Of a stretch of 64,000 nucleotides of DNA, positions 4,570-56,900 are shown one piece after another; within the stretch, counting starts at the first letter, position 1, and every line of letters starts with the position of its first letter. The DNA lies in the IMG/VR virus record IMGVR_UViG_3300042386_001406, positions 1 through 64,000 of that record. One strand, given 5' to 3'. This stretch comes from a virus. The position numbers and the translations under genes are program-made. Under the pieces are notes generated by a model. It worked only from the letters and a program-made list of their open reading frames with translations. It made no database searches and had not been told where the DNA came from.

Positions 4570-5505
4570 ATGATTAATGCTGCCTTACTGCATACAGTGA
4601 ACAGTGTACTAGGAAAAGGAAAAGAAACGAGTAGTAATAACTACGCGTATAAGTGTCCTTTCTGCAACCATCATAAGCCTAAACTCGAAGTGAACATGGT
4701 ACCTAACATGAAAGGAGAAAATCCATGGCATTGTTGGGTATGTAATAAGAAAGGTAGAACACTGATTGGTTTATTTAAGAAAATAAAAGTTGTTCCTGAA
4801 AAACTATCTGAGTTAAGATCAATACTTGGTTACACACAGAAAGAAGAAGTTATTAGTGATAAAACTAAAGTTGAATTACCTAAAGAATATAAACCACTAA
4901 TTAATCTCGCACGCACAGATATTATAGCTAAACACGCTTTAATGTATTTAAAAAAACGAGGTATTAATAAGGCGGACATATTGAAGTATAATATAGGTTA
5001 TTGTGAAGAAGGCAGGTATGGGGGCCGAGTTATTATACCATCATATGATGCTAATGGTGACTTAAATTACTTTATAGCTCGAGACATCAATCCAGACTCA
5101 AAGAAAAAATATGATGCTCCTAAATGTAATAAAAATGAGATTATAGGACTAGAATATTTTATTAACTGGAATGTACCTGTAATATTATGTGAAGGTATTT
5201 TTGATGCTATTGCTATTAAACGTAATGCAGTTCCATTACTTGGAAAAACATTTTCCAAAGCACTAATGTTAAAATTAGTTCAAAACAATGTTAAAACAGT
5301 ATACGTGTCTTTAGATAAGGACGCTTTAAAAGACGCTCTAAAATACGCTGAAGAATTACTCAATTTAGGTAAAGACGTTTATCTAATTGACATGAAGGAT
5401 AAGGATCCTTCAGAAATGGGCTTCGAAAAATTTACCAAATTAGTTCATGAAGCCGAGCAACTATCTCTAGGTGAACTAATATACAAAAAGCTAGAATTAG
5501 CATGA
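4570..5505 (+). CDS. DNA primase (Zn finger + TOPRIM)
   Basis: CPFC...HCWVC zinc finger, RVIIP, CEGIFD and LDKDA TOPRIM motifs. Confidence 0.85.
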   Translation: MINAALLHTVNSVLGKGKETSSNNYAYKCPFCNHHKPKLEVNMVPNMKGENPWHCWVCNKKGRTLIGLFKKIKVVPEKLSELRSILGYTQKEEVISDKTKVELPKEYKPLINLARTDIIAKHALMYLKKRGINKADILKYNIGYCEEGRYGGRVIIPSYDANGDLNYFIARDINPDSKKKYDAPKCNKNEIIGLEYFINWNVPVILCEGIFDAIAIKRNAVPLLGKTFSKALMLKLVQNNVKTVYVSLDKDALKDALKYAEELLNLGKDVYLIDMKDKDPSEMGFEKFTKLVHEAEQLSLGELIYKKLELA

Positions 5506-6287
5506 TTGATAGAAACGTCAATATAATTAAAGACCCAAAAATCAAACGCATTGTAGAGTACAATGAGGGAGATAGGCAAGTAAATGTTTTAGACTCTCGT
5601 TTTTATAGACGAGGAGAAGAATATTACCCATCAGTAACATCAGTATTAAATTATTTTCCTAAAAATCAATTTTTTCATAATTGGCTTAAAGATGTAGGAC
5701 ATAATAGTGATATTATAGCCTCTAAAGCAGCAAATGAAGGTACTCAAGTACACACTGCAATTGATCGTTTTTTAAACGGAGAAGAAATTCAATGGTTAGA
5801 TCAAAATGGTAGAGCAGAATACAGTATGGATGTATGGAAAATGATTCTTAAGTTTGCTGACTTTTGGAACACACACAAACCAGAACTCATAGTAGGTGAG
5901 TATCATTTATTTTCTGATGAGTATAAGTACGCTGGTACAGCTGACTTAGTTGTTCGTATGAATGAAAAATTATGGTTATTAGATATTAAAACATCTAACT
6001 CACTTCATACATCATATGATTTACAGTTAGCCGCTTACTCTAAAGCATGGAATGAAACACATACTGATAAAATAGAGGAAACAGGTATTTTATGGCTTAA
6101 AGCAAATACCCGTAGTGAAGGTAAAAAAGATAAAATACAAGGTAAAGGATGGGAATTAAAAGTTATAAGTGATATTGAAGCTAACTTTAAAATGTTCATG
6201 AATATATACGAGATATATAAACTTGAAAATCCTAACTTCAAACCCTCAACTGAAACATTACCTACATCAGTCAAAGTTTCTTTTTAA
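5502..6287 (+). CDS. PD-(D/E)XK exonuclease (Cas4/RecB-like phage family)
   Basis: YPSVTSVL, GTQVH, YAGTAD, LLDIKTS, QLAAY motifs. Confidence 0.85.
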   Translation: MIDRNVNIIKDPKIKRIVEYNEGDRQVNVLDSRFYRRGEEYYPSVTSVLNYFPKNQFFHNWLKDVGHNSDIIASKAANEGTQVHTAIDRFLNGEEIQWLDQNGRAEYSMDVWKMILKFADFWNTHKPELIVGEYHLFSDEYKYAGTADLVVRMNEKLWLLDIKTSNSLHTSYDLQLAAYSKAWNETHTDKIEETGILWLKANTRSEGKKDKIQGKGWELKVISDIEANFKMFMNIYEIYKLENPNFKPSTETLPTSVKVSF

Positions 6288-6403: not shown

Positions 6404-9400
6404 ATGAAAAAAACAATTCTGTTCTCGGTTTTCAGCTTGCTTGCTTTTGTTGGATTTGGTCAGATTACCACTTCAGCAATTTCAGGTATTGTAATTAACG
6501 AGAAAAAGGAAGTGTTGGTAGGTGCTACAATCCATGCAACCCACCTTCCAACAGGAACGCAGTACACTGCTACTGCAAACAAACAAGGTGTATATGTTTT
6601 ACCTGCTGTGAGAGTAGGTGGACCTTACACAATTCATTCTTCTTATGTAGGATATAAGAAGGGTGAAGTAACAGAAGTTAACACACAGTTAGGTTTAACA
6701 TCTAACGTTGACTTTGTTTTGATTGATGAAGTGAAAGCTCTCAAAGAAGTAGTTATTAGTGGTAATAGTACTTTTTCAAGACAAAAGACAGGTGCCGCTC
6801 AACAATTCGGACGTAGAGAATTAACTTCAATTCCTATTACAGGAGCTAGAACAATTGATGGTATTACCAAGTACAATCCATTTGGTAATGGTACCTCATT
6901 CGGCGCTCAAGACAGCCGTATGAACAACTTCACTATTGATGGTTCTCAGTTCAACAACAACTTTGGATTAGGATCTTCAGCTCAAGCTGGTGGCCGTACA
7001 GGTGCTTCAGCAATCTCACTTGACGCTATTGATCAACTTCAAGTTAACATTGCTCCATTTGACATTCGTCAGTCTGGATTTACAGGTGCTGGTATCAATG
7101 CTGTAACACGCTCTGGTACTAATGACATTGAGGGTAGTGTTTATGGTACTCAACGTAATAACTCATCTCGTTATGTAGGTGATAACGCACGTGGTACTAC
7201 TGTAACAGCACAAAAATTCGATGAAAAAGTATTAGGTTTCCGTTTAGGTGCTCCAATTATCAAAAACAAATTGTTTATCTTTGGTAACTACGAGCAAATT
7301 GATAGAACAGAACCTGGTACCACTTGGATTTCAGCTGGTTCACCTCTTACAGGTAGTCAAGTATCTCGTGTTAGATACTCTGCAATGGATAGTCTTTCTA
7401 AATTCATGAAAGACAAGTTTAATTATACAACTGGTCCATGGGAGGGGTACTCGAATACGAATTCATCTAATAAATTTCTCGTTCGTCTTGATTGGAACAT
7501 CGATGCTAAGAATAAACTTACTGCTCGTTATGTTCACCATAACTCATCAGCTGAGATAAACATTTCTAACTCTCAATCAGCTGGTGCTGGTAACCGTACC
7601 ACTCAGTTTAATGCTATGTCGTTCCAAAACAGTGGATACATTATCCAAGACAACACTCGCTCAGCTGTATTAGAACTTAACTCTAAGTTAACTAATACAC
7701 TTCATAATAACTTGATCGTTTCTTACGATAAGCAAATTGAAGATAGAGCTTATATGAGTAATATGTTCCCAACAATTGATATTCGTGAGGGTTCTGCTAC
7801 TTATACTTCAGTAGGATTTGATCCATTTACACCTGATAACAAGTTAAACTATTGGACATTTAACATTACTAATAACTTGACTAAGTATTTTGGCAAGCAT
7901 ACAGTAGTTGGTGGTGTGAATTTCCAAAGATATCAATCAAACAACTTGTTCTTCCCAGCATCTAATGGTGTTTATATTTTTAATAGTTTGAATGACTTCT
8001 ATACTGCCGCTAATCAATCATTAGCAAATGGTGGTCGTCCTTCAACTTTTGCACCTGCTCGTTTCCAACTTCGCTATTCTGCCTTACCAGGTGGAATTGC
8101 ACCAATGCAAACTTTAGAATCTTATAGAACCGACATTTATCTACAAGATGAATATAACGGTTTTAAAAATCTAAAGCTAACTGCTGGTATTAGAGCAAAT
8201 ATTATTGAAATTGAGAATACTGCTCTAGAAAACCCAGCTATTACAGCAATGACTTTTGCTAATGGTGAAAAATGGAATACAAGTGTAATGCCTAAAACAC
8301 AGGTATTATTTGAACCACGTTTAGGATTTAACTGGAATGTTAAAGGTACAGGTAAAACACAAGTAAGAGGTGGTACTGGTATTTTCACAGGTCGTCCTCC
8401 TCTTGTATTCTTATCTAACCAAATTGGTAATAATGGTGTATTATCAGGATTTATTGATGTATCTGGTGCAGCAGCTGCCGCTTATGGCTTTACTGCTAAT
8501 CCAAATCAGTATTTCATCCCATCAACTCCAACTTTACCATCTACATTTGATTTAGCTTTAACAGATCCAAATTATAAGTTTCCACAAGTATGGAAAAATA
8601 ACTTAGCTGTTGATCAAAAATTACCTTGGTTAGGTTTGATCGCTAGTGTTGAAGTATTGTATAACCAAACAATTAATGCTGTTCATTACTATAACGCTAA
8701 CCTAGATAAGCCAGTTGGTAATTTATTAGGTGTAGATACAAGACCCTTGTATGCAGGAAATGATAATGGTGTTCGTGTAAACGACAACGTATCAATGGCT
8801 GCTGTTTTAACAAACAGAAATGGTGCTTATAATCGTTCTATTACTTATAAATTAGAAAAACCAGTATCTAAAGGTATTTGGGGATATGTAGCATATACAA
8901 ATGCTCAAGCCGAAGACTTTATGAGTGCTGGGTCTATTGCCTCAGGTTCTTGGCAGTCAGCTCAATCGGTATTTGGTAATAATACTCTTAATTTAACAAC
9001 TTCAGATTTCGTAGTTAGAAATCGTATTGTTGGTTTATTAGGATACCGTATTGAAGGTGGTAAGAAATATGGTACTGCTACTACATTAACCTTAGGTTAT
9101 GTAGGATCACAAAACAATCCATTCTCATATATTGTTGCTGGTGATTTGAATGGTGACCGTGTAAGTAATAACGATTTGATATTTGTACCACATAAAGCAT
9201 CTGATATTCGCTTTGCCCCATTAACTGTGGGTACAGGAGCTACAGCTGTAACTTACACTGAAGCTCAACAACAAGCTGCTTTCGATGCATTTATTAATCA
9301 AGATCCATATTTGTCAACTCGTAGAGGACAATATGCTGAAAGAAATGGATTAGCATTACCTTTCTTACATAGATTTGATCTATCAGCCGCTCAAGATTTC

Positions 9401-9682
9401 TTTGTAAAGATTAAAGGTAAGCGTAACAGCTTCCAAATCCGTGCTGATATCTTGAACTTTGGTAATATGTTAAGTAACAAATGGGGTGTATCACAACGTG
9501 CTGGTGCTCCACAATTGTTGAACTTTGTTAGCCGTGACGCTGCAGGTGTTCCAACATATAGATTATCAACTCAACGTGATGCAACAAGTACTTACTTAGC
9601 AAAAGATACATATCAATACAATTCATCAGTATTTGATGTGTGGACAGCTCAGTTAGGTATTCGTTATACTTTCGGTAAGTAA
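6404..9682 (+). CDS. TonB-dependent outer-membrane receptor (Oar-like, with N-terminal carboxypeptidase-regulatory-like domain)
   Basis: Signal peptide; QITTSAISG...YTI N-domain; plug motifs NNFTIDG and INAVTRSGTN; PRLGFNW; C-terminal QLGIRYTF beta strand. Confidence 0.9.
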   Translation: MKKTILFSVFSLLAFVGFGQITTSAISGIVINEKKEVLVGATIHATHLPTGTQYTATANKQGVYVLPAVRVGGPYTIHSSYVGYKKGEVTEVNTQLGLTSNVDFVLIDEVKALKEVVISGNSTFSRQKTGAAQQFGRRELTSIPITGARTIDGITKYNPFGNGTSFGAQDSRMNNFTIDGSQFNNNFGLGSSAQAGGRTGASAISLDAIDQLQVNIAPFDIRQSGFTGAGINAVTRSGTNDIEGSVYGTQRNNSSRYVGDNARGTTVTAQKFDEKVLGFRLGAPIIKNKLFIFGNYEQIDRTEPGTTWISAGSPLTGSQVSRVRYSAMDSLSKFMKDKFNYTTGPWEGYSNTNSSNKFLVRLDWNIDAKNKLTARYVHHNSSAEINISNSQSAGAGNRTTQFNAMSFQNSGYIIQDNTRSAVLELNSKLTNTLHNNLIVSYDKQIEDRAYMSNMFPTIDIREGSATYTSVGFDPFTPDNKLNYWTFNITNNLTKYFGKHTVVGGVNFQRYQSNNLFFPASNGVYIFNSLNDFYTAANQSLANGGRPSTFAPARFQLRYSALPGGIAPMQTLESYRTDIYLQDEYNGFKNLKLTAGIRANIIEIENTALENPAITAMTFANGEKWNTSVMPKTQVLFEPRLGFNWNVKGTGKTQVRGGTGIFTGRPPLVFLSNQIGNNGVLSGFIDVSGAAAAAYGFTANPNQYFIPSTPTLPSTFDLALTDPNYKFPQVWKNNLAVDQKLPWLGLIASVEVLYNQTINAVHYYNANLDKPVGNLLGVDTRPLYAGNDNGVRVNDNVSMAAVLTNRNGAYNRSITYKLEKPVSKGIWGYVAYTNAQAEDFMSAGSIASGSWQSAQSVFGNNTLNLTTSDFVVRNRIVGLLGYRIEGGKKYGTATTLTLGYVGSQNNPFSYIVAGDLNGDRVSNNDLIFVPHKASDIRFAPLTVGTGATAVTYTEAQQQAAFDAFINQDPYLSTRRGQYAERNGLALPFLHRFDLSAAQDFFVKIKGKRNSFQIRADILNFGNMLSNKWGVSQRAGAPQLLNFVSRDAAGVPTYRLSTQRDATSTYLAKDTYQYNSSVFDVWTAQLGIRYTFGK

Positions 9683-9707: not shown

Positions 9708-9740
9708 AAGTGGCTCGGAGAAATCCGGGCCACTTTTTTT
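9708..9740 (+). terminator. intrinsic terminator
   Basis: AAGTGGCTCGGA-gaaa-TCCGGGCCACTT followed by a T run. Confidence 0.9.
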
Positions 9741-10073: not shown

Positions 10074-10235
10074 ATGCAATTAAAAGAATCAAAAACAAAT
10101 TGGCATTTTAATATTAGTTTAGCCAAATCATGTCTACGAATTATGGCTGGAGTAACACTAATTAGAGGTGAACTATTAATATCAGGTGTATTATTTATAT
10201 TAGCTGAAGTATTAGGTATTATTGAAGAATTTTAA
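10074..10235 (+). CDS. small membrane protein (53 aa, not in ORF track)
   Basis: MQLKESKTNWHFNISLAKSCLRIMAGVTLIRGELLISGVLFILAEVLGIIEEF; fills the gap after the promoter. Confidence 0.75.
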   Translation: MQLKESKTNWHFNISLAKSCLRIMAGVTLIRGELLISGVLFILAEVLGIIEEF

Positions 10236-10751: not shown

Positions 10752-11015
10752 ATGAAGCAAAATATCAACGAAATTAAGAAAATGCAGCGTATCGCTGGAT
10801 TAATTACCGAGAGTGAATACCAAGAATCAATAATGAAAGAAAATACAATACTTTCAGATGAGGCATATGATCGTATAGATGGTTTAGTTAACCAAAAAGA
10901 TATGGATATGTTACGTGATGGTGGTAGAAATATAGTACTTGATTTAACAGATGAGGGATTTGAAGACGATGAAATAATTGAGTATATATGCAGATATTTG
11001 AAAAATTTTCTATAA
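10752..11015 (+). CDS. putative head-internal protein
   Basis: N-terminal KKMQRIAGLITE resembles the scaffold C-terminus; ATATTTAT upstream. Confidence 0.55.
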   Translation: MKQNINEIKKMQRIAGLITESEYQESIMKENTILSDEAYDRIDGLVNQKDMDMLRDGGRNIVLDLTDEGFEDDEIIEYICRYLKNFL

Positions 11016-11021
11016 TAAGTA

Positions 11022-11771
11022 ATGAAGATTAGAATCAAAGAGGCACAACAAATGCCACAGGCGATATTCATGGCCGGCCCAGCTGGGGCTGGCAAATCCT
11101 TTGTTTCTAAATCATTACCACTCTCTAAATTCCAAGTAATAAATGTCGACGACGCTTATGAGGAAATGCTCAAAGCAGCTGGTATTGGAATGAAGATTAA
11201 AGACTTTACTCCTGATGAATTGTCACAAGCCGCTAAATTAATGGCGCAGGCTCAAAAAACAACTAAGGATAAATACGCCAAAGCACTCGAAAATTTAAAC
11301 GACATTATTATTGATGGAACAGGTGCAGCATCTAAGCCTTTACTCAAGAAAAAGGCAGAATTAGAGGCTTTAGGATATGAAACTATGATGGTAATGATAT
11401 ATGTTTCACCTGTAACTTCACTTGAACGTAATGCTAATAGAGAACGTTCATTAATGCCTGGTCAAGTTTTAAATACTTGGGAAAAAGTAAATAGTAACAT
11501 CAAAACATATGAACAAGCATTTGGTGACAATTTTATTTTAATAAACAATGATCCAAAAGATGCTGACATAAGTTTTGATCCTCAAGAAATAAAGCGTAGA
11601 TTTTTTGATACTGCTAAGGCTAAAGGTAAACCAAAAACACCAGAGGAATTAGCTAAGAAAAAAGCTGAAGTAGAAGCAATGAATAAAAACATTGAACAAC
11701 TACTTAAACAAAAACCAAAATTCACTCCTAGAGATCAAGCTATCTCTAAAATAAAGGCATTTATTAAATGA
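11022..11771 (+). CDS. P-loop kinase, zeta-toxin/AAA_33-like
   Basis: MAGPAGAGKS Walker A, INVDD, IIIDGT, SLERNANRER. Confidence 0.75.
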   Translation: MKIRIKEAQQMPQAIFMAGPAGAGKSFVSKSLPLSKFQVINVDDAYEEMLKAAGIGMKIKDFTPDELSQAAKLMAQAQKTTKDKYAKALENLNDIIIDGTGAASKPLLKKKAELEALGYETMMVMIYVSPVTSLERNANRERSLMPGQVLNTWEKVNSNIKTYEQAFGDNFILINNDPKDADISFDPQEIKRRFFDTAKAKGKPKTPEELAKKKAEVEAMNKNIEQLLKQKPKFTPRDQAISKIKAFIK

Positions 11772-13753
11772 TAGATTTAAATACAATATTAAACGAGTTA
11801 ACTGAAGATGATGGACAAACAACTCCACCAGCTATCTGTTACTACCCAGGTGGATTTAAACCACCACATGAAGGACACTATGAGGCTCTTAAAGATTTAG
11901 TGTCACGTCCTTACATTACTAAAGTAATAGTTTTAATTGGACATAAAACACGTGATGGTATAACTAAAGAACAAAGTAAACGTATTTGGGATTTATATTT
12001 AGCCACTACACCAATGGCTAAAGTAAGTGTTAGAATAAGTGAAGATGCCTCTCCAATTAAAGATCTATTTAGTGCCTTTGACTCTGACTTAGAACTAAAA
12101 GCATATGTCGCTGGAGCTAAATCAGAGGTAGAAGAACAAGATTATTTTACCCCATTACAAAAAGCATTTAGTACAAGAGTAATGCCTATATCAATTGATG
12201 AAAAAGTTGTTACTCAAGGTAAACGCTTGTCAGGAACTCAAGTACGTGGTTTAGTAACACAACTTAAAAAAGCAGTATTACAGTTACGTTCAATAGCTGA
12301 TAAATCATCAACTGAGTATTCTAAAGCTAGAAATGCTTATTTAAACACATATGAAGAGTTAAAAGGATGCTTTCCAGAAGCAGTTGTTCAAAAAGGACAA
12401 TATGATGATATTCTTAAAATATTAGGGATACCAGTTTTAAATGTAGACCAACTTCAAGAAAATCAAGAAGATGGTAATTTAATTATACGTGTACCTTATG
12501 CTTTAACAACTAAGATTGAGAATTTTTTAAATACAATGTTAATACCATTTGAATACTCTCAACAAGCATTTGGTGGTAAAGAAAGACGTATGTTAATTCC
12601 TAATCTAAGTGATAATAACGAACAAAAAGAAAAAGTACTTAATTATTTAAGTAAACATAACATACCTGTTAATATTGAAGAAGATTTATTTACTATTAAT
12701 TGGTGGAAACAAAGTTTAGAAGAAATTCAACTTGATGTCCCTACACCAGATGAAAAAGATGTTGATCCTGAACAACTAAAAAAAGGAATTGAAGTAGAAA
12801 AAGAACACACCAACGATGAAAAAACAGCTAAGAAAATAGCGTTAGCTCATTTAGGTGAAGATCCAAAATATTATTCTAAGTTAAAAAAAGCAGGTTTAGA
12901 AGAAACATTAACTGAACCACAAGATAAGACAGACAATATTATAGCTGATTTTATTGATTTTGCCGCTAATGCTCTTGACTTACAAAAAGTACCTAAAATT
13001 ACTTTTAGTGATGATGAGAATTTAGCTAAACAAATGCACGCGTTAGGTGCTTATCAACCTAAAACTGATGAATTATTAGTTGTTAAAGGATCAAGACTAA
13101 CAGCAGATATTTTACGCACATTAGCTCATGAGTTAGTACATCGTAAACAAGCTGAAATGGGTCCATTAGATAAAGAAGATGGTAAAACAGGTTCAGAAGT
13201 AGAAAATGAAGCTAATGCCGCCGCTGGTGTATTACTAAGACAATTTGGTAAATACAGACCAGAAATATTTGAAGAAGCAGATGCGATGAAAGGTGATTAT
13301 AAGATATACTGTGATATGGATGGTGTGTTAGTTGATTTTGATAAAGGGTATGAAGAATTAACAGGTAAAAAAGCTAGTTTTGACACACCAAAAGAAGAAT
13401 TTTGGGAACCAATTTCAAAAGCAGGTGCAGCGTTTTGGATTAAATTACAATGGATGCCTGATGGAAAACAATTATGGAATTATATTAAACCATACAATCC
13501 AGATTTACTATCAGCTCCATCACGTGAAGAATCATCTAAAATAGGTAAATTTACTTGGGTGAAAAGAAACTTACCTGGTACTAAACTTATCTTACGTTCA
13601 GCTGATCGTAAACAAGAATTTGCAACACCAAACTCTATCTTAATTGATGATAGAGCAGATAATATACAACGTTGGAAAGATGCGGGTGGTATAGGTATTC
13701 ATCACACATCAGCTGCTGATACAATACAACAATTGAAAGATTTAGGGCTATGA
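11768..13753 (+). CDS. multidomain protein: HxGH nucleotidyltransferase + DUF5661-like + HExxH domain + HAD nucleotidase
   Basis: YPGGFKPPHEGH/LSGTQVR; GIEVEKEH...AHLGEDPKYY; LAHELVH...ENEANA; YCDMDGVLVDF...LIDD. Confidence 0.75.
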   Translation: MIDLNTILNELTEDDGQTTPPAICYYPGGFKPPHEGHYEALKDLVSRPYITKVIVLIGHKTRDGITKEQSKRIWDLYLATTPMAKVSVRISEDASPIKDLFSAFDSDLELKAYVAGAKSEVEEQDYFTPLQKAFSTRVMPISIDEKVVTQGKRLSGTQVRGLVTQLKKAVLQLRSIADKSSTEYSKARNAYLNTYEELKGCFPEAVVQKGQYDDILKILGIPVLNVDQLQENQEDGNLIIRVPYALTTKIENFLNTMLIPFEYSQQAFGGKERRMLIPNLSDNNEQKEKVLNYLSKHNIPVNIEEDLFTINWWKQSLEEIQLDVPTPDEKDVDPEQLKKGIEVEKEHTNDEKTAKKIALAHLGEDPKYYSKLKKAGLEETLTEPQDKTDNIIADFIDFAANALDLQKVPKITFSDDENLAKQMHALGAYQPKTDELLVVKGSRLTADILRTLAHELVHRKQAEMGPLDKEDGKTGSEVENEANAAAGVLLRQFGKYRPEIFEEADAMKGDYKIYCDMDGVLVDFDKGYEELTGKKASFDTPKEEFWEPISKAGAAFWIKLQWMPDGKQLWNYIKPYNPDLLSAPSREESSKIGKFTWVKRNLPGTKLILRSADRKQEFATPNSILIDDRADNIQRWKDAGGIGIHHTSAADTIQQLKDLGL

Positions 13754-14289
13754 TTAAATTAATAGACATATTAAAAGAAGAAATTAATTTAGAAAAATAT
13801 GTTGAAGATTGGTTAAGTAAAGGAGGAATACATGATGACTCTAATATTAATAGAGCATTTACTATTAAACTAAAACAATTAGGTTACGAAAATTATGGAA
13901 CTATATATCGAGTTTTATTTGTCAAAAAAGATAATAAAATATCCAATTTAAAATCTTATATTTGGGACAAATATAATGGAAAATATATATCTTTTTCTGA
14001 AACTTTAGAGGGAGCAAATAAATTTATGGACCTATTAATAAATGATGGTCTGCTTAAAAAAGGAGAAATACTTGTTGTTATAAAACAAAAATCTAATTAT
14101 TATAATTTACATAAATGGGTAGAAGATAAAATAAAAGAATATGGAGGTCCTTGGCAATTTGCTGATAAAAAAGGTGTTTGGGTTGGAGGGTTGTATAGAG
14201 AAACTCAAAAAACAAAAGAAGTTTTATCAACATTAGATAATAATTTTGAAATAGTAAGACAATATTCTAAAAAAGGAAAAATGTTATGA
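13750..14289 (+). CDS. putative ADP-ribosyltransferase-fold protein
   Basis: IYRV / ISFS / late KEVL arrangement fits the R-S-E ART pattern; MIKLIDILKE leader. Confidence 0.4.
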   Translation: MIKLIDILKEEINLEKYVEDWLSKGGIHDDSNINRAFTIKLKQLGYENYGTIYRVLFVKKDNKISNLKSYIWDKYNGKYISFSETLEGANKFMDLLINDGLLKKGEILVVIKQKSNYYNLHKWVEDKIKEYGGPWQFADKKGVWVGGLYRETQKTKEVLSTLDNNFEIVRQYSKKGKML

Positions 14290-15827: not shown

Positions 15828-16474
15828 TGCGTATTCGTATAATTAAAGAAGCTATAGCAACTGATATAACTGATATAGTAAAAAATACTATTGGACTTAA
15901 AGCCACTGTTAAACGCTTTAAGAATAATATATTAGTAGCTTCACCAGGTGGATTCTTCTCACCTAGCCGTTTACAAAATATGGCTGATGAATTGAATGAT
16001 AGAATACCTGAACCCTGGTTAGAAAGTCCTGTAAGTGTAGGTACAGGTGGTGCTACTGAAGGTTTACTTATTATAAGATTGAATGATGAGGGTATGAAAC
16101 ATACCAATTTATTTGAAGCAGAAGAGGATTTTACACCAATTGAAGATCCAAAGGAACCAAAACCAGCAGCTAAACAATTTCAAATATTAGCTTCAATGAT
16201 CACTAACACTAAAGTTAATGATCAAACTAATATATTATCAGCAATGAGAGCATTACCAGGTGTTACTATTGTTAACTCACAAGCAGCAATTCCAGGTTCA
16301 AATTCAGAAGGACAACTCCGCTATAAAACAAATGTTGACATTAAAATTGATACTTCAGCACTCAGTGGTGATATAAAAACTGCTATTAAGAAAATAATTG
16401 AAGATATTAAGAAAATTGAAGGTGTAGTTGAGTTTAAAGTATTACCAAAAGCAAAAGAAACAACTCCATACTAA
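15827..16474 (+). CDS. hypothetical protein, C-terminal ACT/ferredoxin-like module
   Basis: ILSAMRALPGVTIV...IKKIEGV; MRIRIIKE leader. Confidence 0.5.
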   Translation: MRIRIIKEAIATDITDIVKNTIGLKATVKRFKNNILVASPGGFFSPSRLQNMADELNDRIPEPWLESPVSVGTGGATEGLLIIRLNDEGMKHTNLFEAEEDFTPIEDPKEPKPAAKQFQILASMITNTKVNDQTNILSAMRALPGVTIVNSQAAIPGSNSEGQLRYKTNVDIKIDTSALSGDIKTAIKKIIEDIKKIEGVVEFKVLPKAKETTPY

Positions 16475-17127
16475 TGAATAAGATACAATTAAAGGAGCAT
16501 ATTGAAAAAATCATTAACTATGTAGGCCAAGAATACAATCATGGTCCTAAGTTAGTTATGAATGAATCTAAAGAACCAGTCTTTATTTCTGAAGGCTTAT
16601 ATTACCATATTGAAAATAACTTACCACTAAACGAATCAATATATCGTCCTCAATCAGCAATGTTTTTAAAATTATTTGTTGAAGCAAGAAACTTATATGA
16701 TTCTAAGCGTTTAGTATTATGTGAATCAGATCAATATTATTTTGACAATACAGATATAGGTACATTTGGTGAGTATAATGGTATTAAAGTGCCACTAGAC
16801 TTACCTCTGACCGAGGAATTTCTAACAGAAGCATTAGAAGAAGAAAAAAAACAACCAGCATTAGGTAAACCTAAGCGTGGTGGTTCTAAAAAATTCTATG
16901 TGTATGTTAAAGATCCTAAAACCAAACGTATTAAAAAAGTATCATTTGGTATGGCAGGTGGTGGCTTAAGAGCCAAATTAAACAACCCAAAAGCTAGACA
17001 AGCGTTTTCTAAACGCCACAATTGTCCTCAAAAGAAAGACAAAACTAAAGCTTCATATTGGAGTTGTCGTTTACCTCGCTATGCTAAACTATTAGGATTT
17101 AAAACAACATTTAGTGGATTTTGGTAA
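16474..17127 (+). CDS. conserved phage protein, basic C-terminal domain
   Basis: KKFYVYVK...KKVSFG...FSKRHNC...YWSCR. Confidence 0.6.
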   Translation: MNKIQLKEHIEKIINYVGQEYNHGPKLVMNESKEPVFISEGLYYHIENNLPLNESIYRPQSAMFLKLFVEARNLYDSKRLVLCESDQYYFDNTDIGTFGEYNGIKVPLDLPLTEEFLTEALEEEKKQPALGKPKRGGSKKFYVYVKDPKTKRIKKVSFGMAGGGLRAKLNNPKARQAFSKRHNCPQKKDKTKASYWSCRLPRYAKLLGFKTTFSGFW

Positions 17128-21143: not shown

Positions 21144-21175
21144 AGTGGCCCACCAAAAAGGTGGGCTACTTTTTT
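21144..21175 (+). terminator. intrinsic terminator
   Basis: AGTGGCCCACC-aaaaa-GGTGGGCTACT followed by TTTTT. Confidence 0.9.
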
Positions 21176-23863: not shown

Positions 23864-24832
23864 ATGGCAGACAATTTTGATCTTAGAAAATTTATTACTG
23901 AAGCGAAACTTAAAATTAAAGTTCCTGTAAAGGAAATGGCGCGTATCGCTAAAGAAAAATATAAACTCAATCCAGACTTTCCACAAATTGAAGATAGAAT
24001 TGCTAATCCTAGCAACTTTAAAACAGATAGAAAACAACAAGTAGTTAATTACTTTGTTAAAAAAGCAAAAGACGAGAGTATTGATCCAATGGAAGTTGAA
24101 TTGCTAAAAAGTGATATTGAAAAAAATTCAGCTCCTGGTATTAACTGGTCTTTCACTCCTGATATTCGTAATCAACTTTTAAAAGCCACAACTGTTAAAC
24201 CAGAAAAAGCAGCTGATGAAGAACCAGGTGAAGGTGATATATTTGGTGGCGCTGATGATGCTGAAGATTTGTTTGTAGGTAAAGGTAAACTTAAATCTAA
24301 AAAAGCAAAACCAGAAACAGGGGATGAAGAGCCAGGTGAAACAGATATCACTAAAATTAAAGCACCAAAATCAACAGCTGCTGGTTCTAAAGCTGGTGAG
24401 TGGTTTGTAGATAACAGTGACTTAATTGATCGTATTATTAAACAATATGCTCAATCAAATATTAAAACAGGACGCGCTGTTAAAGAAGCAGAAGATGGTG
24501 GTTTATCAAGTGCTGATTTCAAAGCAGCTCAAGCTAAATCTAAAGAAGCAGCTAAAGCTGGTTTACCTGACTTAGTAAAACGTCTTGTAGACAAAATTGA
24601 AGTTTTAAAAGATGAAGATTATAATGCTTATGTTAAAGTATTAAATGATCTTGACAAATATAAATTCGGAGCTACTAATACTAAAGGAGTAATGAAAATG
24701 ATCCTTAAATCATTAGGCGAAGATAAACTTCCAGCTATTGGATCTAAGAGAAAAGATAGTGAAGAAGATGAATTTAAAAAATTAGGTATTGATGATACAG
24801 ACATTGAAATTGATGGTGAAGAGGAACTCTAA
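23864..24832 (+). CDS. putative head-internal protein
   Basis: MADNFDLRKFITE leader; highly charged; late motif upstream. Confidence 0.5.
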   Translation: MADNFDLRKFITEAKLKIKVPVKEMARIAKEKYKLNPDFPQIEDRIANPSNFKTDRKQQVVNYFVKKAKDESIDPMEVELLKSDIEKNSAPGINWSFTPDIRNQLLKATTVKPEKAADEEPGEGDIFGGADDAEDLFVGKGKLKSKKAKPETGDEEPGETDITKIKAPKSTAAGSKAGEWFVDNSDLIDRIIKQYAQSNIKTGRAVKEAEDGGLSSADFKAAQAKSKEAAKAGLPDLVKRLVDKIEVLKDEDYNAYVKVLNDLDKYKFGATNTKGVMKMILKSLGEDKLPAIGSKRKDSEEDEFKKLGIDDTDIEIDGEEEL

Positions 24833-30680: not shown

Positions 30681-31538
30681 ATGGCAGATAATTTTGACAT
30701 GAAACAATTCCTAGTTGAAAACAAATTAGGTGCTTATTCTAAATTAAGAGAAAATCCAGAGCAACAATATTATGTTCATGATGAAGAAGGATTAGAAGAA
30801 CCAATTGGTCCTTTCTCATTAGAACAAGCTAAAGCTGAAGTAATTAAACAAGGTGAAGGCTGGAAATTGATTGATGCTGAAACAGCTAAAGAAATTTGGT
30901 CACATTTAGGTGAAGGTGAAGCTGCTTATGAATATGAGAAAGGTAAAGCCGCTGGTGAAAAAGAAGAAAAAGAAAAATTAGCTAAAGAAGATCTAGGACA
31001 AGATCGTACTGATGCTGAAGCAGAAAAAATGATGGATTTCTTAGCTGAGAAAAATGTAGAAGAAGTAAGCCAAAATACATTCATGGTTGTTGATAGAATT
31101 GAAGAAATTGTTAGTAATTTAGCTCGCAATATCTCAACTAACTCAAATATTCCAACACAAGATAAAATTGGTTTAGTACAAGCTCTTAAAGAATTAAAAG
31201 AGTATGTTGAAGATTTAGGTGTTGAACTTGAAATGAATGAAACTAAAAAACCAGTAAAAGAAGGTGAAGATATTTTCGCTGATATTGAAGATGATCTTAT
31301 GCATGGAACTGATAGTAAGAGAGATCAAATTGAATACTTACAAGAAGTTATTGACTGGTGTCAAAATAAAATAGAGAAAATTAAAGACACTAATATGGAT
31401 GAAGCTATGGGTGGTAAAAATCCAGAAGGTGATAAATTAGTATTACGCTTTTTAAAAGGTGTAGCTAAAAAATTTGACTACCCTGTAGCACAAGCTGCTA
31501 TATTTGTTAAAGATACAATTAAAAGTTTAGGATATTAA
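30681..31538 (+). CDS. putative head-internal polyprotein
   Basis: MADNFDMKQFLVE leader; short modules (incl. GYF-like GPFSLEQ) separated by x-x-E motifs. Confidence 0.5.
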   Translation: MADNFDMKQFLVENKLGAYSKLRENPEQQYYVHDEEGLEEPIGPFSLEQAKAEVIKQGEGWKLIDAETAKEIWSHLGEGEAAYEYEKGKAAGEKEEKEKLAKEDLGQDRTDAEAEKMMDFLAEKNVEEVSQNTFMVVDRIEEIVSNLARNISTNSNIPTQDKIGLVQALKELKEYVEDLGVELEMNETKKPVKEGEDIFADIEDDLMHGTDSKRDQIEYLQEVIDWCQNKIEKIKDTNMDEAMGGKNPEGDKLVLRFLKGVAKKFDYPVAQAAIFVKDTIKSLGY

Positions 31539-31677: not shown

Positions 31678-33063
31678 ATGAAAAAACCAATCAACGAAAT
31701 AGAAAGACTTAAACTTATCGCTGGTTTAATTAACGAAATTAATTATAATGACTCAGTATACGGCGTTAAAAGAACAACATTAACTGAGGGTAAAAAGAAA
31801 AAAGAAGTTAAAGAATTATCTATAGACGTTGCTAACCCATACGAATACCGTATGGGTCTTCAATATGAACTAGAGCAAATGGATGACTATAGTAATGAAT
31901 CTTTAGAAAAAGCTAAATCAATTGTATTGAAGAACTTAGCTAAAGATGTTAACTTCTATACTACTTTACTTAACCAAGATCAATCACCTTATAAGTTTGA
32001 AGCTCCTGAAACAGACAAACCAGGTATGCAAGCTAAAGCTGATGGTTATTTAAAGAAAGAATTAAAGAAAGATGCTAAAGCTAATGTACAAGATACATTA
32101 GGTAAAAAAGAAGCAGGTTCTAAAAAACCTAAAGGTGTTAAAGTAATGCCTGATAAAGGTGTAACTGGCTCTGAAAAAACCATTAAAGAGAATCTTATTA
32201 ATGAGGTAATATTAAAAGTATATCATTATGATCCATCATCAGGTGATTTAGAAGATGTGGATGTTGAATATTTTAGTTCTGAAGAAGAAGCTAAAAAAGC
32301 TGCTTTAGCTCATCATTGGCAAGTAGCTTTTGATAATGGAGATACAGATCTTAGTAAAGAAGATTTTATATCTCAAACTAACTTTGATGACTTTGAACCA
32401 TATAACAACTACGATTATAAAATAGTATCTGATAAAGGTAATATTAAAGAAGGATTAGAAGAAGCTTCAAAAGATCCACATGACAAAGCTAAGGTAATGA
32501 AAGTGGATGGTAAATTCGAAGTTTATACAACTCAAGATGGTGAAATAAAAACATTCGATAAAGAAGCTGATGCTAAAGCATTTGCTGATAAATATAACAG
32601 TGAGAATGTTAAAGAAGGTTCATTCATGGGTGGTGTTGATTTAGGTGCTTCATTTGATAAAATGAAAGGACAAATGAATGCTGAAGATGAATTTAATTCA
32701 TTAATGTCTAAGTATGACTGGTATTATGAAATGAGCGATGATCCACGTGCTTATGATCGTGGAACAGCTATGAATAGTAAATTAAAGATGTTAGGTAAGC
32801 AAATTGGTGTTGATAAAGCTATTGAATTATTCAACTCTAAAGCTCCATCTGATAGAAAAATAACATCTTCTTTCTTTATGGAAGGTGAAGATAAGCATTC
32901 TAAAATTAAAGAAGCATTAAAAGCTGCTTTAAAGAAAGCTTTAAAAGAAGAAGATCCAGCTATGGCTAGAATAGAAAAAGACGAAGAAGCCGCTGAAAAA
33001 GCTTTAGCACAAATATTAACAAAGAAAGCAGCTGTATTAGCTAAACCAGGAACCCAAGGATAA
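31678..33063 (+). CDS. putative head-internal polyprotein
   Basis: RLKLIAGLINE leader; DUF5661-like MGLQYE...KNLAKDVNFY; YDWYYEMSDD module. Confidence 0.5.
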   Translation: MKKPINEIERLKLIAGLINEINYNDSVYGVKRTTLTEGKKKKEVKELSIDVANPYEYRMGLQYELEQMDDYSNESLEKAKSIVLKNLAKDVNFYTTLLNQDQSPYKFEAPETDKPGMQAKADGYLKKELKKDAKANVQDTLGKKEAGSKKPKGVKVMPDKGVTGSEKTIKENLINEVILKVYHYDPSSGDLEDVDVEYFSSEEEAKKAALAHHWQVAFDNGDTDLSKEDFISQTNFDDFEPYNNYDYKIVSDKGNIKEGLEEASKDPHDKAKVMKVDGKFEVYTTQDGEIKTFDKEADAKAFADKYNSENVKEGSFMGGVDLGASFDKMKGQMNAEDEFNSLMSKYDWYYEMSDDPRAYDRGTAMNSKLKMLGKQIGVDKAIELFNSKAPSDRKITSSFFMEGEDKHSKIKEALKAALKKALKEEDPAMARIEKDEEAAEKALAQILTKKAAVLAKPGTQG

Positions 33064-33692
33064 TGAACAAACAAGTATTAATAGAATATTATTCATTTAC
33101 ACCTTCGCCTCGTGCTTTGCATGAGGCAAAGTTGTCTCCATCTAAAAACTTAATTGTTGAAGGTGTAGTACAACGCGCAGATGCTAAAAACCAAAACGGA
33201 CGTGTTTATCCTAAAGACACATTGAAACGTGAAGTTGAAAAATATATCCTTGGTCCAATAGCTGAAAACAGAGCATTAGGTGAACTAGACCACCCAGACT
33301 CATCAATCATTAACTTAAAGAATGTATGTCATAACATTAAATCTTTATGGTGGGATGGTGATGATTTAATGGGTAAAATTGAAGTATTACCTACACCAAG
33401 TGGTAATATATTAAAAGAATTATTTTTAAATAATATAACTGTTGGTATTTCTTCTCGTGGTATGGGTTCAGTAAAACCACTAGGTGAAGGAACAATGGAG
33501 GTACAAGATGACTTTGAATTATTATGTTGGGATTTTGTTTCAACACCATCAACTCAAGGCGCATTTATGAGACCAACAGGACTAAGTGAAAGTTATGTAC
33601 CTGGTACTCGTTCATTTGGTAAGTATACTAAAGTAAATAATCTAATCTCAGAAATTATTTGTAGTCAAACAGGTGTTTGCTGCATTAGATAA
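33063..33692 (+). CDS. prohead protease (T4 gp21-like)
   Basis: NQNGRVYP, ALGELDHP, GISSRGMGS, DFVSTPS. Confidence 0.95.
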   Translation: MNKQVLIEYYSFTPSPRALHEAKLSPSKNLIVEGVVQRADAKNQNGRVYPKDTLKREVEKYILGPIAENRALGELDHPDSSIINLKNVCHNIKSLWWDGDDLMGKIEVLPTPSGNILKELFLNNITVGISSRGMGSVKPLGEGTMEVQDDFELLCWDFVSTPSTQGAFMRPTGLSESYVPGTRSFGKYTKVNNLISEIICSQTGVCCIR

Positions 33693-35252: not shown

Positions 35253-36920
35253 ATGAGTCAAATTCAATCTTTAATCGAATCTGCTAACCCATGGCAGTCA
35301 CAGCAAGGCGAGGCTTCTCGTTTAGCTAACAAGTGGGAAAAATCAGGTTTGTTAGAAGGTCTTACTGACTACAACAAATCTAATATGGCTGTAATGCTTG
35401 AGAACCAAGCTAAGCAATTAGTTGTTGAACAGTCAAACACTGGAACTGGTGGTACTTTTACTCCAGGAACTGGTGAGCAGTGGGCTGGCGTAGCTTTACC
35501 ACTCGTTCGTAAGGTATTCGGACAAATCGCTTCTAAAGAATTCGTTTCTGTACAACCAATGAGCTTACCAGCTGGTTTAGTGTTCTTCTTAGATTTCCAA
35601 TACGGAACTAATAAAGATCCATTCACTTCTGGTAATTCACTTTATGGTACAGCTTACACTCAAGGTGATTCTGGCTTTGGTAACTTAGCTCAGGGTGGTC
35701 TTTATGGTGCTGGCCGTTGGGGTTATTCAGTTAACCAATTCTCATCTTCATTAACTGGTGCTACATCTGCAGCTGCTGCTACATTTGATGCTATCAACTG
35801 GGATTCTGATTATTCTCAGTCTATTGTTAATAGCAAGATCATTCAAATTGCTTTCACAACTGGTTCAGCTGGTTTCCCAACTAACTTTGATGTGAATGGT
35901 GTTCGTGATCTTTATTTGATCGATGGTACTCCTGCTTCTCCAGGAACTGTTATCACTTCAGCTACATTATTACCTCAGTTTACTACAATTGCTGGTGGTA
36001 CAGTTAAGTTATTCGTAACTGCTTCTGGTGTTGCTGCTGTTAACGCTATCACAGGTGGTATGACTTTATTCTTCAACAAGAAGACTGCTGATAACGCTCG
36101 TGGTGATTTTGAAAATGCTGCTGGTGCTGGTTATCCAAACGCAGAAAGCAATACAGAAATCGTAATCCCAGAGATCAATGTACAATTACGTTCTGAGACT
36201 ATTGCTGCTAAAACTCGTAAGTTAAAAGCACAATGGACTCCAGAATTCGCTCAAGACTTAAACGCTTACCAAAACTTGGATGCTGAAGCTGAATTAACTT
36301 CTATGTTATCAGAGTACATCTCTTTAGAGATCGACTTAGAAATCATGGATATGTTAATCCAGAACGCTCCAATCGTTGAACAATGGTCAGCTAAAGTGGG
36401 CGGTACTGTAACTGCAGGTTCATCTAACATTGCTTACAACACATCAGGTGTTTATTACACTCAGATGACTTGGTTCCAAACTTTAGGTATCAAATTACAA
36501 AAAGTTTCTAACCAAATTCACCAACGTACTTTACGTGGTGGTGCTAATTTCATGGTAGTTTCTCCAACTGTAGCTACTATCCTTGAGTCAATTCCAGGAT
36601 TTGCAGCTGATACAGACGGTGCAGCTGACAACATGAAGTATGCATTCGGCGTACAGAAAATTGGTCAATTAAACAGCCGTTACAAAGTTTACAAGAATCC
36701 TTACATGATCGAGAATACTATCTTAATGGGATTCCGTGGTAACCAATTCTTAGAGACTGGTGCTGTTTATGCTCCATACATTCCGTTAATCATGACTCCA
36801 TTAGTGTACGATCCAAATACCTTCACTCCAAGAAAAGGTATCATGACTCGTTACGCGAAGAAAATGGTACGTCCTGAATTCTACGGTAAGGTATTTATTG
36901 CTGACTTACAAGTTATCTAA
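35253..36920 (+). CDS. major capsid protein (T4 gp23-like)
   Basis: VQPMSLPAGLVF, AKTRKLKAQWTPEFAQDL, YAPYIPL, FTPRKGIMTRY. Confidence 0.95.
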   Translation: MSQIQSLIESANPWQSQQGEASRLANKWEKSGLLEGLTDYNKSNMAVMLENQAKQLVVEQSNTGTGGTFTPGTGEQWAGVALPLVRKVFGQIASKEFVSVQPMSLPAGLVFFLDFQYGTNKDPFTSGNSLYGTAYTQGDSGFGNLAQGGLYGAGRWGYSVNQFSSSLTGATSAAAATFDAINWDSDYSQSIVNSKIIQIAFTTGSAGFPTNFDVNGVRDLYLIDGTPASPGTVITSATLLPQFTTIAGGTVKLFVTASGVAAVNAITGGMTLFFNKKTADNARGDFENAAGAGYPNAESNTEIVIPEINVQLRSETIAAKTRKLKAQWTPEFAQDLNAYQNLDAEAELTSMLSEYISLEIDLEIMDMLIQNAPIVEQWSAKVGGTVTAGSSNIAYNTSGVYYTQMTWFQTLGIKLQKVSNQIHQRTLRGGANFMVVSPTVATILESIPGFAADTDGAADNMKYAFGVQKIGQLNSRYKVYKNPYMIENTILMGFRGNQFLETGAVYAPYIPLIMTPLVYDPNTFTPRKGIMTRYAKKMVRPEFYGKVFIADLQVI

Positions 36921-53982: not shown

Positions 53983-56900
53983 ATGGCTAATGAATTTGTT
54001 GCTCGCAATGGTATCATTGCGTTGAATGACTCTCAAATAACCGGATCGTTAAGTGTTGGCAGTAATGTTACTGCCTCTAATGCGCTTATCACAGGTACAA
54101 TAACTGCCCAAACTTTATTAGTACAGAATATTACCTCATCTAGAGATTATGTGACGGGTTCTACTGTATTTGGATCATCACTTTCTAACACACACCAATT
54201 TACAGGTTCTGTTTCAATAACAGGAAGTTTAACTATACCTTCTATTCCACAAGGTACTACTGAAACTAATATATTAGTAATAGATGGTGATGGTGGATTT
54301 AAATATAGAAATAATTTAAGTTTACAAGGTGCCCAAGGTGCCACTGGACCTCAAGGTGCCCAAGGTGCTGTTGGACCACAGGGAGCTCAAGGAGCCCAAG
54401 GTGCTGTTGGTCCACAGGGTATTCAAGGTATACAAGGAGCCCAAGGTGCAGTTGGGCCTCAAGGTATTCAAGGTATACAAGGAGCCCAAGGGGCTACTGG
54501 ACCGCAGGGAGCACAAGGCGCTCAAGGCGCTCAAGGTGCAACAGGACCTCAAGGAGCCCAAGGCGCCCAAGGAGCTACAGGACCCCAAGGTATACAAGGT
54601 ATACAAGGTATACAAGGCGCACAGGGTGCAACTGGACCTCAAGGTGCCCAAGGCGCTCAAGGTGCTCAAGGAGCTACAGGCCCACAAGGAGCTCAAGGAG
54701 CTACAGGACCCCAAGGTATACAAGGTATTCAAGGTATTCAAGGTATTCAAGGCGCACAGGGTGCAACTGGACCTCAAGGTGCCCAAGGCGCACAAGGTAC
54801 ACAAGGCGCAACAGGACCTCAAGGTATTCAAGGTATTCAAGGTATTCAAGGTATTCAAGGCGCCCAAGGTGCTACAGGTCCTCAGGGTGCCCAAGGCGCT
54901 CAAGGAGCTCAAGGAGCTACAGGTCCACAAGGAATCCAAGGTGTACAAGGAGCTCAAGGAGCTACAGGTCCACAAGGAATCCAAGGTGTACAAGGAGCTC
55001 AAGGTGCTACAGGACCTCAAGGTATTCAAGGTATTCAAGGTGCCCAAGGTGCTACAGGCCCTCAGGGTGCCCAAGGCGCCCAAGGTGCTCAAGGTGCAAT
55101 TGGACCACAAGGCGCCCAAGGTGCAACTGGACCAAACGCTGGAATTACTTCATATACAAATCCAGGTGATAATCGTGTTATCACTTCAGTTAACTCATCT
55201 ACTATTAATGGTGAGGCTAACTTATTATTTGATGGTTCAACCTTAAGAATAACAGGATCTTTAATACAATCTGGATCAACAGGTGCTTCATTATATGGAA
55301 GTGGTTCAGGTGTATTTACAGTAGATGGTACTGTAGGTAGATTATTCCAAGTAGATGATTCACTTACAGGATCATTATTCTCAGTTAATACAGCTGGTGG
55401 TTTACCTGTAATAGAAGCCTTCTCAGACAATACAGTTAAAATTGGTAAATATGGATCTGAAGCGATTGTAATATCTGGTAGTAATAATACAACCCAAATC
55501 AGTGGTTCAATTAAATTACCTTCATTAGGTTCAACTTCAGACACAACTGTAGTAACATTTAATACTACAACTAAAACAATAGGATATAATACAGTAGCAG
55601 GACCTCAGGGAGCCCAAGGCGCAACTGGACCTCAAGGCGCCCAAGGTGCTACAGGTCCTCAGGGTGCCCAAGGCGCTCAAGGTGCTCAAGGCGCAACAGG
55701 ACCTCAAGGTATTCAAGGTATTCAAGGTGCCCAAGGCGCCCAAGGCGCAACAGGTCCACAAGGTGCTCAAGGTGCCCAAGGCGCTCAGGGCGCGACTGGA
55801 CCTCAAGGCGCTCAAGGAGCCCAAGGAGCCCAAGGTGCTCAAGGAGCAACTGGGCCTCAAGGTGCACAAGGCGCTCAGGGAGCCCAAGGCGCGACTGGAC
55901 CTCAAGGCGCTCAAGGTAACCAAGGCGCTCAGGGAGCCCAAGGTGCACAAGGTATTCAAGGTATTCAAGGTATTCAAGGAGCTCAAGGTTCACAAGGTGC
56001 CCAAGGTTCTCAAGGTGCACAAGGTGCAACTGGGCCTCAAGGAGCTCAAGGTGCTACTGGTCCAAATGCAGGTATAACTTCATATACAAATCCAGGCGAT
56101 AATAGAGTATTAACTTCAGTTAACTCATCTACTATCAATGCTGAGACAAATTTAACATTTGATGGATCTACATTAACTGTATCTGGAAGTACAGCAAATA
56201 AAGTATCAGTTATAGGTTCAGGTAGTGGTGTAAATACAACTCTATTCTCAGTAGATGGAGCTAATGGTAGATTATTTGAAGTATCAGATGATTTATCTAA
56301 CTCACTATTTTCAGTTAATACTATTGCAGGTATTCCTGTAATTGAAGCATTCGCTGATAATACAGTTAAATTAGGTAAGTTTGGAGCTGAAGCTATTGTA
56401 ATATCAGGAAGTAACAATACAACTCAGATTAGTGGTTCTATTAAATTACCGAGTTTAGGATCTACATCTGATACTACAGTTGTTACTTTTAATACAACAA
56501 CAAAAACTATAGGATATAATACAGTAGCAGGTCCTCAAGGTGCACAGGGTGCTCAAGGTGCACAGGGTGCTCAAGGTGCTCAAGGTGCTCAAGGTATTCA
56601 AGGTATTCAAGGCTCTCAAGGAGCCCAAGGCTCTCAAGGTGCCCAAGGAGCCCAAGGTGCAACAGGCCCTCAAGGTGCCCAAGGTGCTCAAGGATCTCAA
56701 GGTGCACAAGGCGCCCAAGGCGCTCAAGGCGCGACAGGCCCTCAAGGTGCCCAAGGTGCTCAAGGATCTCAAGGTGCACAAGGCGCACAAGGAGCCCAAG
56801 GCGCGACAGGCCCACAAGGTGCTCAGGGTAGCCAAGGCGCTCAAGGAGCACAGGGTGCCCAGGGAGCATCTGGCGCCACTATCTTAGGTAGTGCTAATAC

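Follow-up and report, generated by a model that had tools for sequence, protein, structure and literature searches.

A five-module protein of a T4-like phage with (L/I)-x-Glu joints, a candidate capsid cargo

A 661-amino-acid (aa) protein encoded by a T4-like phage is most economically, and best, explained on the sequence evidence as a putative capsid cargo that the S77 prohead protease would cut into separate enzymes. We put this reading forward tentatively, rating it a little short of an even chance. The protein is the product of the open reading frame (ORF) at 11768-13753 on the plus strand, intact and without interruption, of the 64,000-nt stretch of DNA that we analyzed (the window), which comprises positions 1 to 64,000 of IMG/VR virus record IMGVR_UViG_3300042386_001406, a single 76.5-kb viral contig. 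This contig, which encodes a large terminase, a gp20-type portal, a Peptidase_S77 (gp21-type) prohead protease and a gp23-type capsid protein, is that of a T4-like phage; its nearest cultured relative is Flavobacterium phage immuto (vB_FspM_immuto), with a capsid protein identity of 55.6%. In the 661-aa protein five folded modules form a flexible chain, and three of the modules are enzymes whose catalytic motifs are intact. A conserved (L/I)-x-Glu is present in a portable leader of 10-13 residues and in each of the four linkers between modules. It is exactly at these motifs that relatives have gained, lost, split and reshuffled modules, and the cassette boundaries end at the motif Glu.

The five modules stand in the order given by a preliminary description of this DNA, which was made from the sequence alone: HxGH nucleotidyltransferase, small alpha/beta module (M2), DUF5661, zincin HExxH module and HAD nucleotidase (Table 1). 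The coordinates of that description were also exact, with HELVH at aa 454-458 (13127-13141) and DMDGV beginning at aa 516 (13313). The N-terminal domain found NadD, NMNAT and PPAT structures in Foldseek (E 2e-5 to 3e-4), and its HxGH (aa 34-37) and SxTxxR (aa 155-160) motifs are invariant in homologues. Pfam gave no match to the nucleotidyltransferase domain of the 661-aa protein, with PF01467 matched in 3 of 43 relatives, and the NCBIfam coaD and NMNAT models scored far under their cut-offs on it, all NCBIfam matches being sub-threshold. M2 (aa 238-296) was modeled by AlphaFold as a beta-alpha-beta-beta-alpha unit, and DUF5661 (aa 330-374) scored above the Pfam gathering threshold (49.2 bits, cut-off 27). 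The C-terminal domain (aa 507-660) matches PHROG 2643, a 5'-3' deoxyribonucleotidase (E 3.7e-28), and the human mdN/cdN deoxyribonucleotidases in Foldseek; PF06941 is matched in its relatives. A sequence search of the PDB with the whole protein found no match.

The HExxH module scored below threshold against the Pfam putative metallopeptidase DUF6782 (16.4 bits, cut-off 27, aa 415-473). It was modeled separately, from a 601-aa relative, with a predicted local distance difference test score (pLDDT) of 85.9 and a predicted template-modeling score (pTM) of 0.82. The modeled topology is a helix, three strands, the HExxH helix and then a helix with a Glu, which is that of a zincin. All but about three of the top 50 VIA-align matches were zinc metallopeptidases, the best being Spartan (Z 7.8), with Wss1, the ERAP1 catalytic domain, IrrE/PprI, minigluzincins and the ArdC peptidase domain among the others. 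Weak Foldseek matches agree with this fold, and stand-alone viral copies are labeled IrrE N-terminal-like in BFVD. As modeled, the module is a zincin by fold, not a DUF6782 member by score. HxGH, SxTxxR, HExxH with its downstream Glu, the DxDxV of DMDGV and the HAD Asp pair (IDD motif) are invariant in 20 homologues, so all three enzymes, the nucleotidyltransferase, the zincin and the nucleotidase, look active and are predicted to be catalytically competent. Their folds point to nucleotide or nicotinamide adenine dinucleotide (NAD)-type substrates, and interference with NAD or nucleotide defense signals is proposed on fold class alone.

The joints between these modules carry the first part of the argument. 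An AlphaFold model built on 69 sequences has a mean pLDDT of 80.6 and a pTM of 0.39, with modules that are well folded and a mutual arrangement that is undefined; the protein resembles beads on a string, and the compact inter-domain structure that would have spoken against the preliminary description is not seen. The pLDDT falls below 50 at aa 11-17, 230-236, 303-324, 373-387 and 503-508, and every one of these disordered stretches holds or directly follows an [LI]xE, in line with the hydrophobic-x-E that had been noted at each boundary. There are 11 strict [LI]xE motifs in the chain (Glu at 10, 13, 92, 145, 231, 305, 319, 364, 379, 383 and 502). An enrichment in their overall number was rejected, shuffled sequences giving 9.1 +/- 2.6; only their placement is non-random. 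When the disordered stretches and four residues on each side are taken as linker zones (97 residues, 15% of the chain), eight of the 11 motifs lie inside them (P=2e-4, whole-protein shuffle). If residues are shuffled only inside the zones, so that the Glu-rich composition is preserved, the mean is 2.6 against the eight observed (P=5e-4), and all five zones are hit (P=0.011). Across the 20 homologues, which are 74-93% identical, each joint keeps its P3 and P1 residues with little or no change, and the residues just after P1 vary freely. Linker 1 has a 20-aa insert in some relatives, and in two others it is replaced by a wholly different, longer linker that still contains L-K-E.

One peptide within the linkers stands apart. 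DLFTINWWK (aa 306-314, window 12683-12709) is invariant though modeled as disordered, and a cut-type motif stands on either side of it. Even relatives that lack both small modules retain it, and its sequence is similar to the first residues of the N-terminal leader (DL-x-TI). It may serve the zincin as an internal peptide for targeting or regulation.

The leader itself, modeled as a helix at aa 4-11 followed by disorder, has invariant Leu4, Ile7, Leu8 and Glu10 in the 20 homologues. T4 capsid-targeting sequences are 10-19 aa long, with positions 4 and 7 used for targeting and positions 8 and 10 for gp21 processing (PMC9026906), and the leader of the 661-aa protein has this layout: it is short, with Leu at 8 and Glu at 10. 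The same leader class (class A) begins the ORFs at 13750, 17127, 17741 and 18761, which makes five ORFs with the one under study. BLAST among these five found no similarity past the leader, which excludes paralogy as the cause of the common leader, and the synonymous codons differ, which excludes a recent DNA duplication. The leader is therefore conserved at the peptide level. Orthologues of the upstream kinase in syntenic relatives bear a class A leader, another leader or none. More widely, an [LIV]xE ending at residues 7-14 is present in 17 of 35 ORFs in the 9.7-35.3 kb region vs 4 of 45 elsewhere, and in 12% of random windows. The proposed cutter is encoded in the same window, and both it and the capsid protein have a motif of this type at their N-termini (LIE ending at residue 8 of the prohead protease and at residue 9 of the capsid protein); T4 gp21 itself carries LIE-9, according to the cited review.

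Two further leader classes were observed, each on one pair of ORFs. MADNFD...F-x-x-E is found at 23864-24832 and 30681-31538, and MK..INEI....IAGLI-x-E at 10752-11015 and 31678-33063. In each pair, one member is located between the genes for portal and protease, a region that in T4 encodes the core proteins gp67/gp68. A DUF5661-like module in the head ORF at 31678 was not significant with our own profile (E 0.06) and had no match in Pfam.

The gain and loss of cassettes at the joints is seen most clearly with DUF5661. Close homologues have either approximately 601 aa, without DUF5661, or approximately 655-662 aa, with it. Two 601-aa proteins are identical to the 661-aa protein at 594 of 601 positions, save for a clean 60-aa gap that removes DUF5661. 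In the window this cassette lies between 12-nt direct repeats, GTTTAGAAGAAA, at 12714-12725 and 12894-12905; these are the only two copies in the window, and the repeat encodes the joint. Cassette identity is 87% with a relative at 77% backbone identity and only 68% with a relative at 96% backbone identity; the cassette has therefore moved independently of the backbone. M2 is likewise absent from the 523- and 524-aa relatives L014 and L013 (IMG/VR, same gene order), the deletion running from just after LQE to IEE.

A search of 1.84 billion representative sequences gave 11,178 matches at E <= 0.001, many of them to the nucleotidase alone. Architectures were surveyed by profile mapping in the best 150 of these, which are representatives clustered at 50% identity and are related to one another, so that the counts overstate the number of independent events. 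The best 150 show 43 architectures, from 131 to 1547 aa. The most frequent frame is transferase, optional insert, zincin, optional insert, nucleotidase; other forms are stand-alone nucleotidases, transferase-zincin pairs, zincin-nucleotidase pairs and some permuted orders, with DUF6934, Imm5-like, superoxide dismutase, zeta-toxin kinase, ParB_N and lysozyme domains as inserts or partners. The preliminary description had suggested looking for the modules as separate or shuffled leader-bearing ORFs, and they do occur in relatives as separate, split and shuffled ORFs, many with leaders; the invariant domain order that would have told against it is not seen, since content varies and order is sometimes permuted. 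Of 105 HAD modules, 78% have an [LI]xE no more than 18 residues upstream (background 16%), the commonest distance to the first strand being 5-7 residues, and several different junction peptides end in this way. Upstream of the first helix of the zincin it is present in 86% of 51 cases (background 21%), and it is found in 62 of 67 nucleotidyltransferase leaders. Transferase modules in internal positions keep a leader-like peptide, with another L-x-E occupying the position of the Met. At the HAD junction the ratio of [LI]xE to [LI]xD is 98:12 vs 1134:1393 elsewhere, a preference that is only partly a motif effect because the junction windows are Glu-rich overall (271 E vs 65 D).

The split form is illustrated by phage immuto gp088/gp087. 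These proteins hold the same nucleotidyltransferase, zincin and HAD modules, and immuto, like phage Melnitz, encodes an S77 protease. In contrast to the fused form, a 907-aa transferase-zincin protein stops at the position of the fused-form junction, and the nucleotidase is a separate, following ORF of 199 aa with its own leader ending in LLLEE. The immuto proteins also differ in an extra N-terminal domain and a second HExxH module, and both are annotated only as metabolic enzymes; the immuto papers treat DNA modification only. A search for S77 in the IMG/VR fragments that hold relatives gave no match and is uninformative, since all of these fragments are incomplete (12-63%).

Two relatives have further features. 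Methylophilales phage Melnitz (L002:1587-3539) encodes a 650-aa protein that opens with the leader MKKFSEIIE, continues with a different HxGH-type transferase and has at its C-terminus the same Cys-rich module as the window ORF 16474-17127; this module sharing therefore extends to the Kyanoviridae. The homologue at L008:10001-12112 has a 104-aa extension after the HAD module; this tail is rich in Lys, looks helical and finishes with a hydrophobic Gly/Ala/Val segment.

The preliminary description had gone on to suggest that the prohead protease dices the chain into separate injected enzymes. The leader, the S77 protease, the conserved joints and the modular relatives speak for this; the physical steps we infer only by analogy with T4's internal proteins and with Alt. 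The leader would attach the chain to the prohead core, and as the head matures the S77 protease would take off the leader and cut after the junction Glu residues. Cutting would release an approximately 25-kDa nucleotidyltransferase, an approximately 8-kDa module, an approximately 7-kDa DUF5661 module, an approximately 14-kDa zincin and an approximately 18-kDa nucleotidase, and these separate enzymes would be left in the head and delivered together with the DNA. A further reading, which we regard as possible though doubtful, is that the (L/I)-x-Glu joint doubles as a prohead-protease cut site and, in the DNA, as a recombination seam for module swaps. Aquatic T4-like phages would then have a cassette system in which an enzyme behind a leader or joint is injected cargo and new effector sets are built by short-homology exchange, with the DUF5661 cassette as an example caught in the act.

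Several points weigh against the capsid-cargo reading, beyond the relatedness of the surveyed representatives and the Glu-rich junctions. The hydrophobic-x-E motif is loose, its total number in the chain is at chance level, and a Pro comes directly after the LTE at aa 381-383. The gene is located amid kinase- and Dps-like genes, 12 kb upstream of the head genes, and TATTTATA, a motif that precedes structural genes, does not stand directly before it, the nearest copy being at 10192. Phages commonly encode HxGH transferases and NT5C nucleotidases as plain cytoplasmic enzymes, and among their stand-alone nucleotidases many have no leader. Were every leader-like ORF cargo, the head would hold approximately 15 kinds of protein. 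Our literature search found no report of virion proteomics, cleavage or packaging for this phage or its relatives. Another explanation is an uncut cytoplasmic multi-enzyme that would work whole, alongside the coupled kinase, in nucleotide or NAD-type metabolism, with the hydrophobic-x-E joints as flexible hinges and recombination seams and the leader as an N-terminal helix with another role. The two enzyme folds and the chance-level motif total speak for it, the gene is translationally coupled to a P-loop kinase, it belongs to a unit outside the head module between the terminators at 9708 and 21144, and the repeats around DUF5661 show a joint working as a recombination site. We nevertheless consider this explanation unlikely. 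It leaves unexplained a leader that is common to unrelated ORFs and that kinase orthologues swap or lose, the retention of Glu, not Asp, at P1, the differing junction peptides that all end in hydrophobic-x-E 5-7 residues before the HAD module, and the same motif class at the start of both the protease and the capsid protein.

Packaging without internal cutting has a precedent in T4 Alt, an approximately 76-kDa protein that is packaged and trimmed at its ends only (PMC5694885). The leader would then target the chain and be trimmed, the joints would stay uncut and one multi-enzyme chain would be injected, and the evidence for the leader is stronger than that for any single internal site. The internal P3 and P1 residues, however, equal those of the leader in invariance, module indels stop at the motifs, and internal nucleotidyltransferase modules retain a leader-like peptide after another L-x-E; we judge packaging of the whole chain improbable. 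It is more improbable still that the joints are cut by the chain's own zincin, not by the prohead protease, as in a self-processing polyvalent protein; Iyer et al. proposed such processing for the polyvalent proteins that phages and plasmids encode. This zincin is a second candidate cutter: its HExxH and downstream Glu are intact, the nucleotidyltransferase has it as a constant partner in differing architectures, its structural matches include the peptidase domain of plasmid ArdC, and zincin peptidases are a hub domain of polyvalent proteins that they are predicted to process (PMC5512222). Against this, the same motif and leader occur on zincin-free proteins (stand-alone HADs, kinases and the ORF at 13750), and the motif, which is the known specificity of the gp21 family, also marks the N-termini of both protease and capsid protein.

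The closest known counterparts of the proposed cargo are the T4 internal proteins IPI-III and Alt. Like it, they begin with a short leader that has a hydrophobic residue at 8 and Glu at 10 and that recurs on unrelated proteins which change fast, and their phage likewise encodes a gp21/S77 protease, one that cuts after (L/I)-x-E. Alt is moreover an enzyme of similar size that is trimmed at both ends, by cleavage at ITE-6 and LTE-619 (PMC5694885). The protein described here differs in having five modules per chain with a site at every joint, so that several products are predicted per gene, and it has no sequence similarity to either. In the phiKZ and SPN3US inner-body and ejection proteins, a T4-related protease also cuts after Glu, often at multiple sites (PMC9026906, PMC5694885). 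Those sites are S/A-x-E, with another P3 preference, and long propeptides are removed from proteins that are not strings of separate enzymes. The polyvalent proteins that phages and conjugative elements encode (Iyer, Burroughs, Anand, de Souza and Aravind 2017, PMC5512222) are alike in combining unrelated catalytic domains in one chain, in their highly variable architectures, in a recurrent zincin-like metallopeptidase hub, and in partner domains that in our relatives include ParB_N, lysozyme, Imm5-like and zeta-toxin kinase domains. In contrast to them, the chain described here is small, has a T4-type leader and has joints that fit the prohead protease, not the inferred zincin specificity. 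A term search of PMC5512222 for the HxGH transferase and the NT5C nucleotidase found no match.

The T4 capsid-targeting sequence, the specificity of gp21 and the zincin-hub polyvalent proteins are thus already known. Our literature search found no paper on this protein family, none naming DUF5661, and no description of prohead-protease polyproteins in T4-like phages. In the literature searched, the new element is a leader-led string of enzymes, from a large family of aquatic T4-like phages, in which every joint and cassette boundary fits the prohead-protease motif. If the capsid-cargo reading is true, the few injected proteins of T4 would be one case of a much larger strategy. Each such protein could bring several ready-made enzymes into the cell with the DNA, before phage gene expression, which is the moment when host defenses by nucleotide or NAD depletion act. 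The motif rule would allow cargo to be predicted from sequence, and the arrangement would offer a natural way to load several proteins into T4-type capsids. The cultured relative immuto makes the idea directly testable.

Table 1. Coordinates in the window of the five-module ORF, its parts and the genes discussed with it
Feature	Position	Strand	Remarks
Five-module ORF, 661 aa	11768..13753	+	4-nt overlap with upstream kinase gene and with downstream ORF
N-terminal leader, aa 1-13 (MIDLNTILNE + LTE)	11768..11806	+	candidate cut sites Leu8/Glu10, Leu11/Glu13
HxGH (HIGH-type) nucleotidyltransferase domain, aa 21-229	11828..12454	+	HxGH 11867-11878; SxTxxR 12230-12247
Linker 1, aa 229-236	12452..12475	+	LQE: Leu229 and Glu231 invariant
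Small alpha/beta module M2, aa 237-300	12476..12667	+	
Linker 2, aa 301-319	12668..12724	+	IEE, then conserved DLFTINWWK, then LEE
DUF5661 cassette, 60 aa, aa 317-376	12716..12895	+	Pfam; flanking 12-nt direct repeats
Linker 3, aa 377-387	12896..12928	+	LEE then LTE; disordered in model
Zincin-like metallopeptidase module, aa 388-502	12929..13273	+	HELVH 13127-13141; downstream ENE (aa 479-481) 13202-13210
Linker 4, aa 499-510	13262..13297	+	IFE (Ile500/Glu502), then variable residues
NT5C-type HAD 5'(3')-deoxyribonucleotidase domain, aa 511-661	13298..13750	+	DMDGV 13313-13327
P-loop kinase-like gene, upstream neighbor	11022..11771	+	PHROG matches; 4-nt overlap
179-aa ORF, downstream neighbor, leader MIKLIDILKE	13750..14289	+	same leader class; otherwise unrelated in sequence
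gp21-type prohead serine protease (Peptidase_S77), proposed cutter	33063..33692	+	PF03420 E 2.5e-30; phrog_207 E 6.8e-54

The gene array that contains the five-module ORF is approximately 11 kb long and is bounded by strong terminator-like hairpins at 9708-9735 and 21144-21170. The motif TATTTATA has 23 copies on the plus strand of the contig, 18 of which lie within 60 nt upstream of ORF starts, such sequence making up 6% of the contig. It typically stands 20-30 nt ahead of structural genes (for example at window 25615, 27234, 29155, 36978, 37672, 47800 and 59766) and is a candidate late promoter element. The T4 late promoter TATAAATA is not enriched (20 vs 16) and therefore gives no evidence on timing.

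Other genes of the phage have features of their own. A complete 1092-aa TonB-dependent-receptor-like ORF (6404-9682), with a signal peptide and its own terminator (9708-9735), lies amid phage genes. In syntenic relatives such as L010 and L003, the homologue of the ORF at 5502-6287 directly adjoins the small ORFs with no receptor between them, and the receptor-like ORF is therefore an insertion specific to this phage. The gp23-type capsid protein (35253-36920, 555 aa) is matched by Pfam only from aa 284, and a large Ser/Thr/Gly-rich insertion appears to split its fold. The 1319-aa collagen-like tail-fiber ORF at 53983-57942 coincides with a local peak in guanine-plus-cytosine content of 0.48, vs approximately 0.32 elsewhere.

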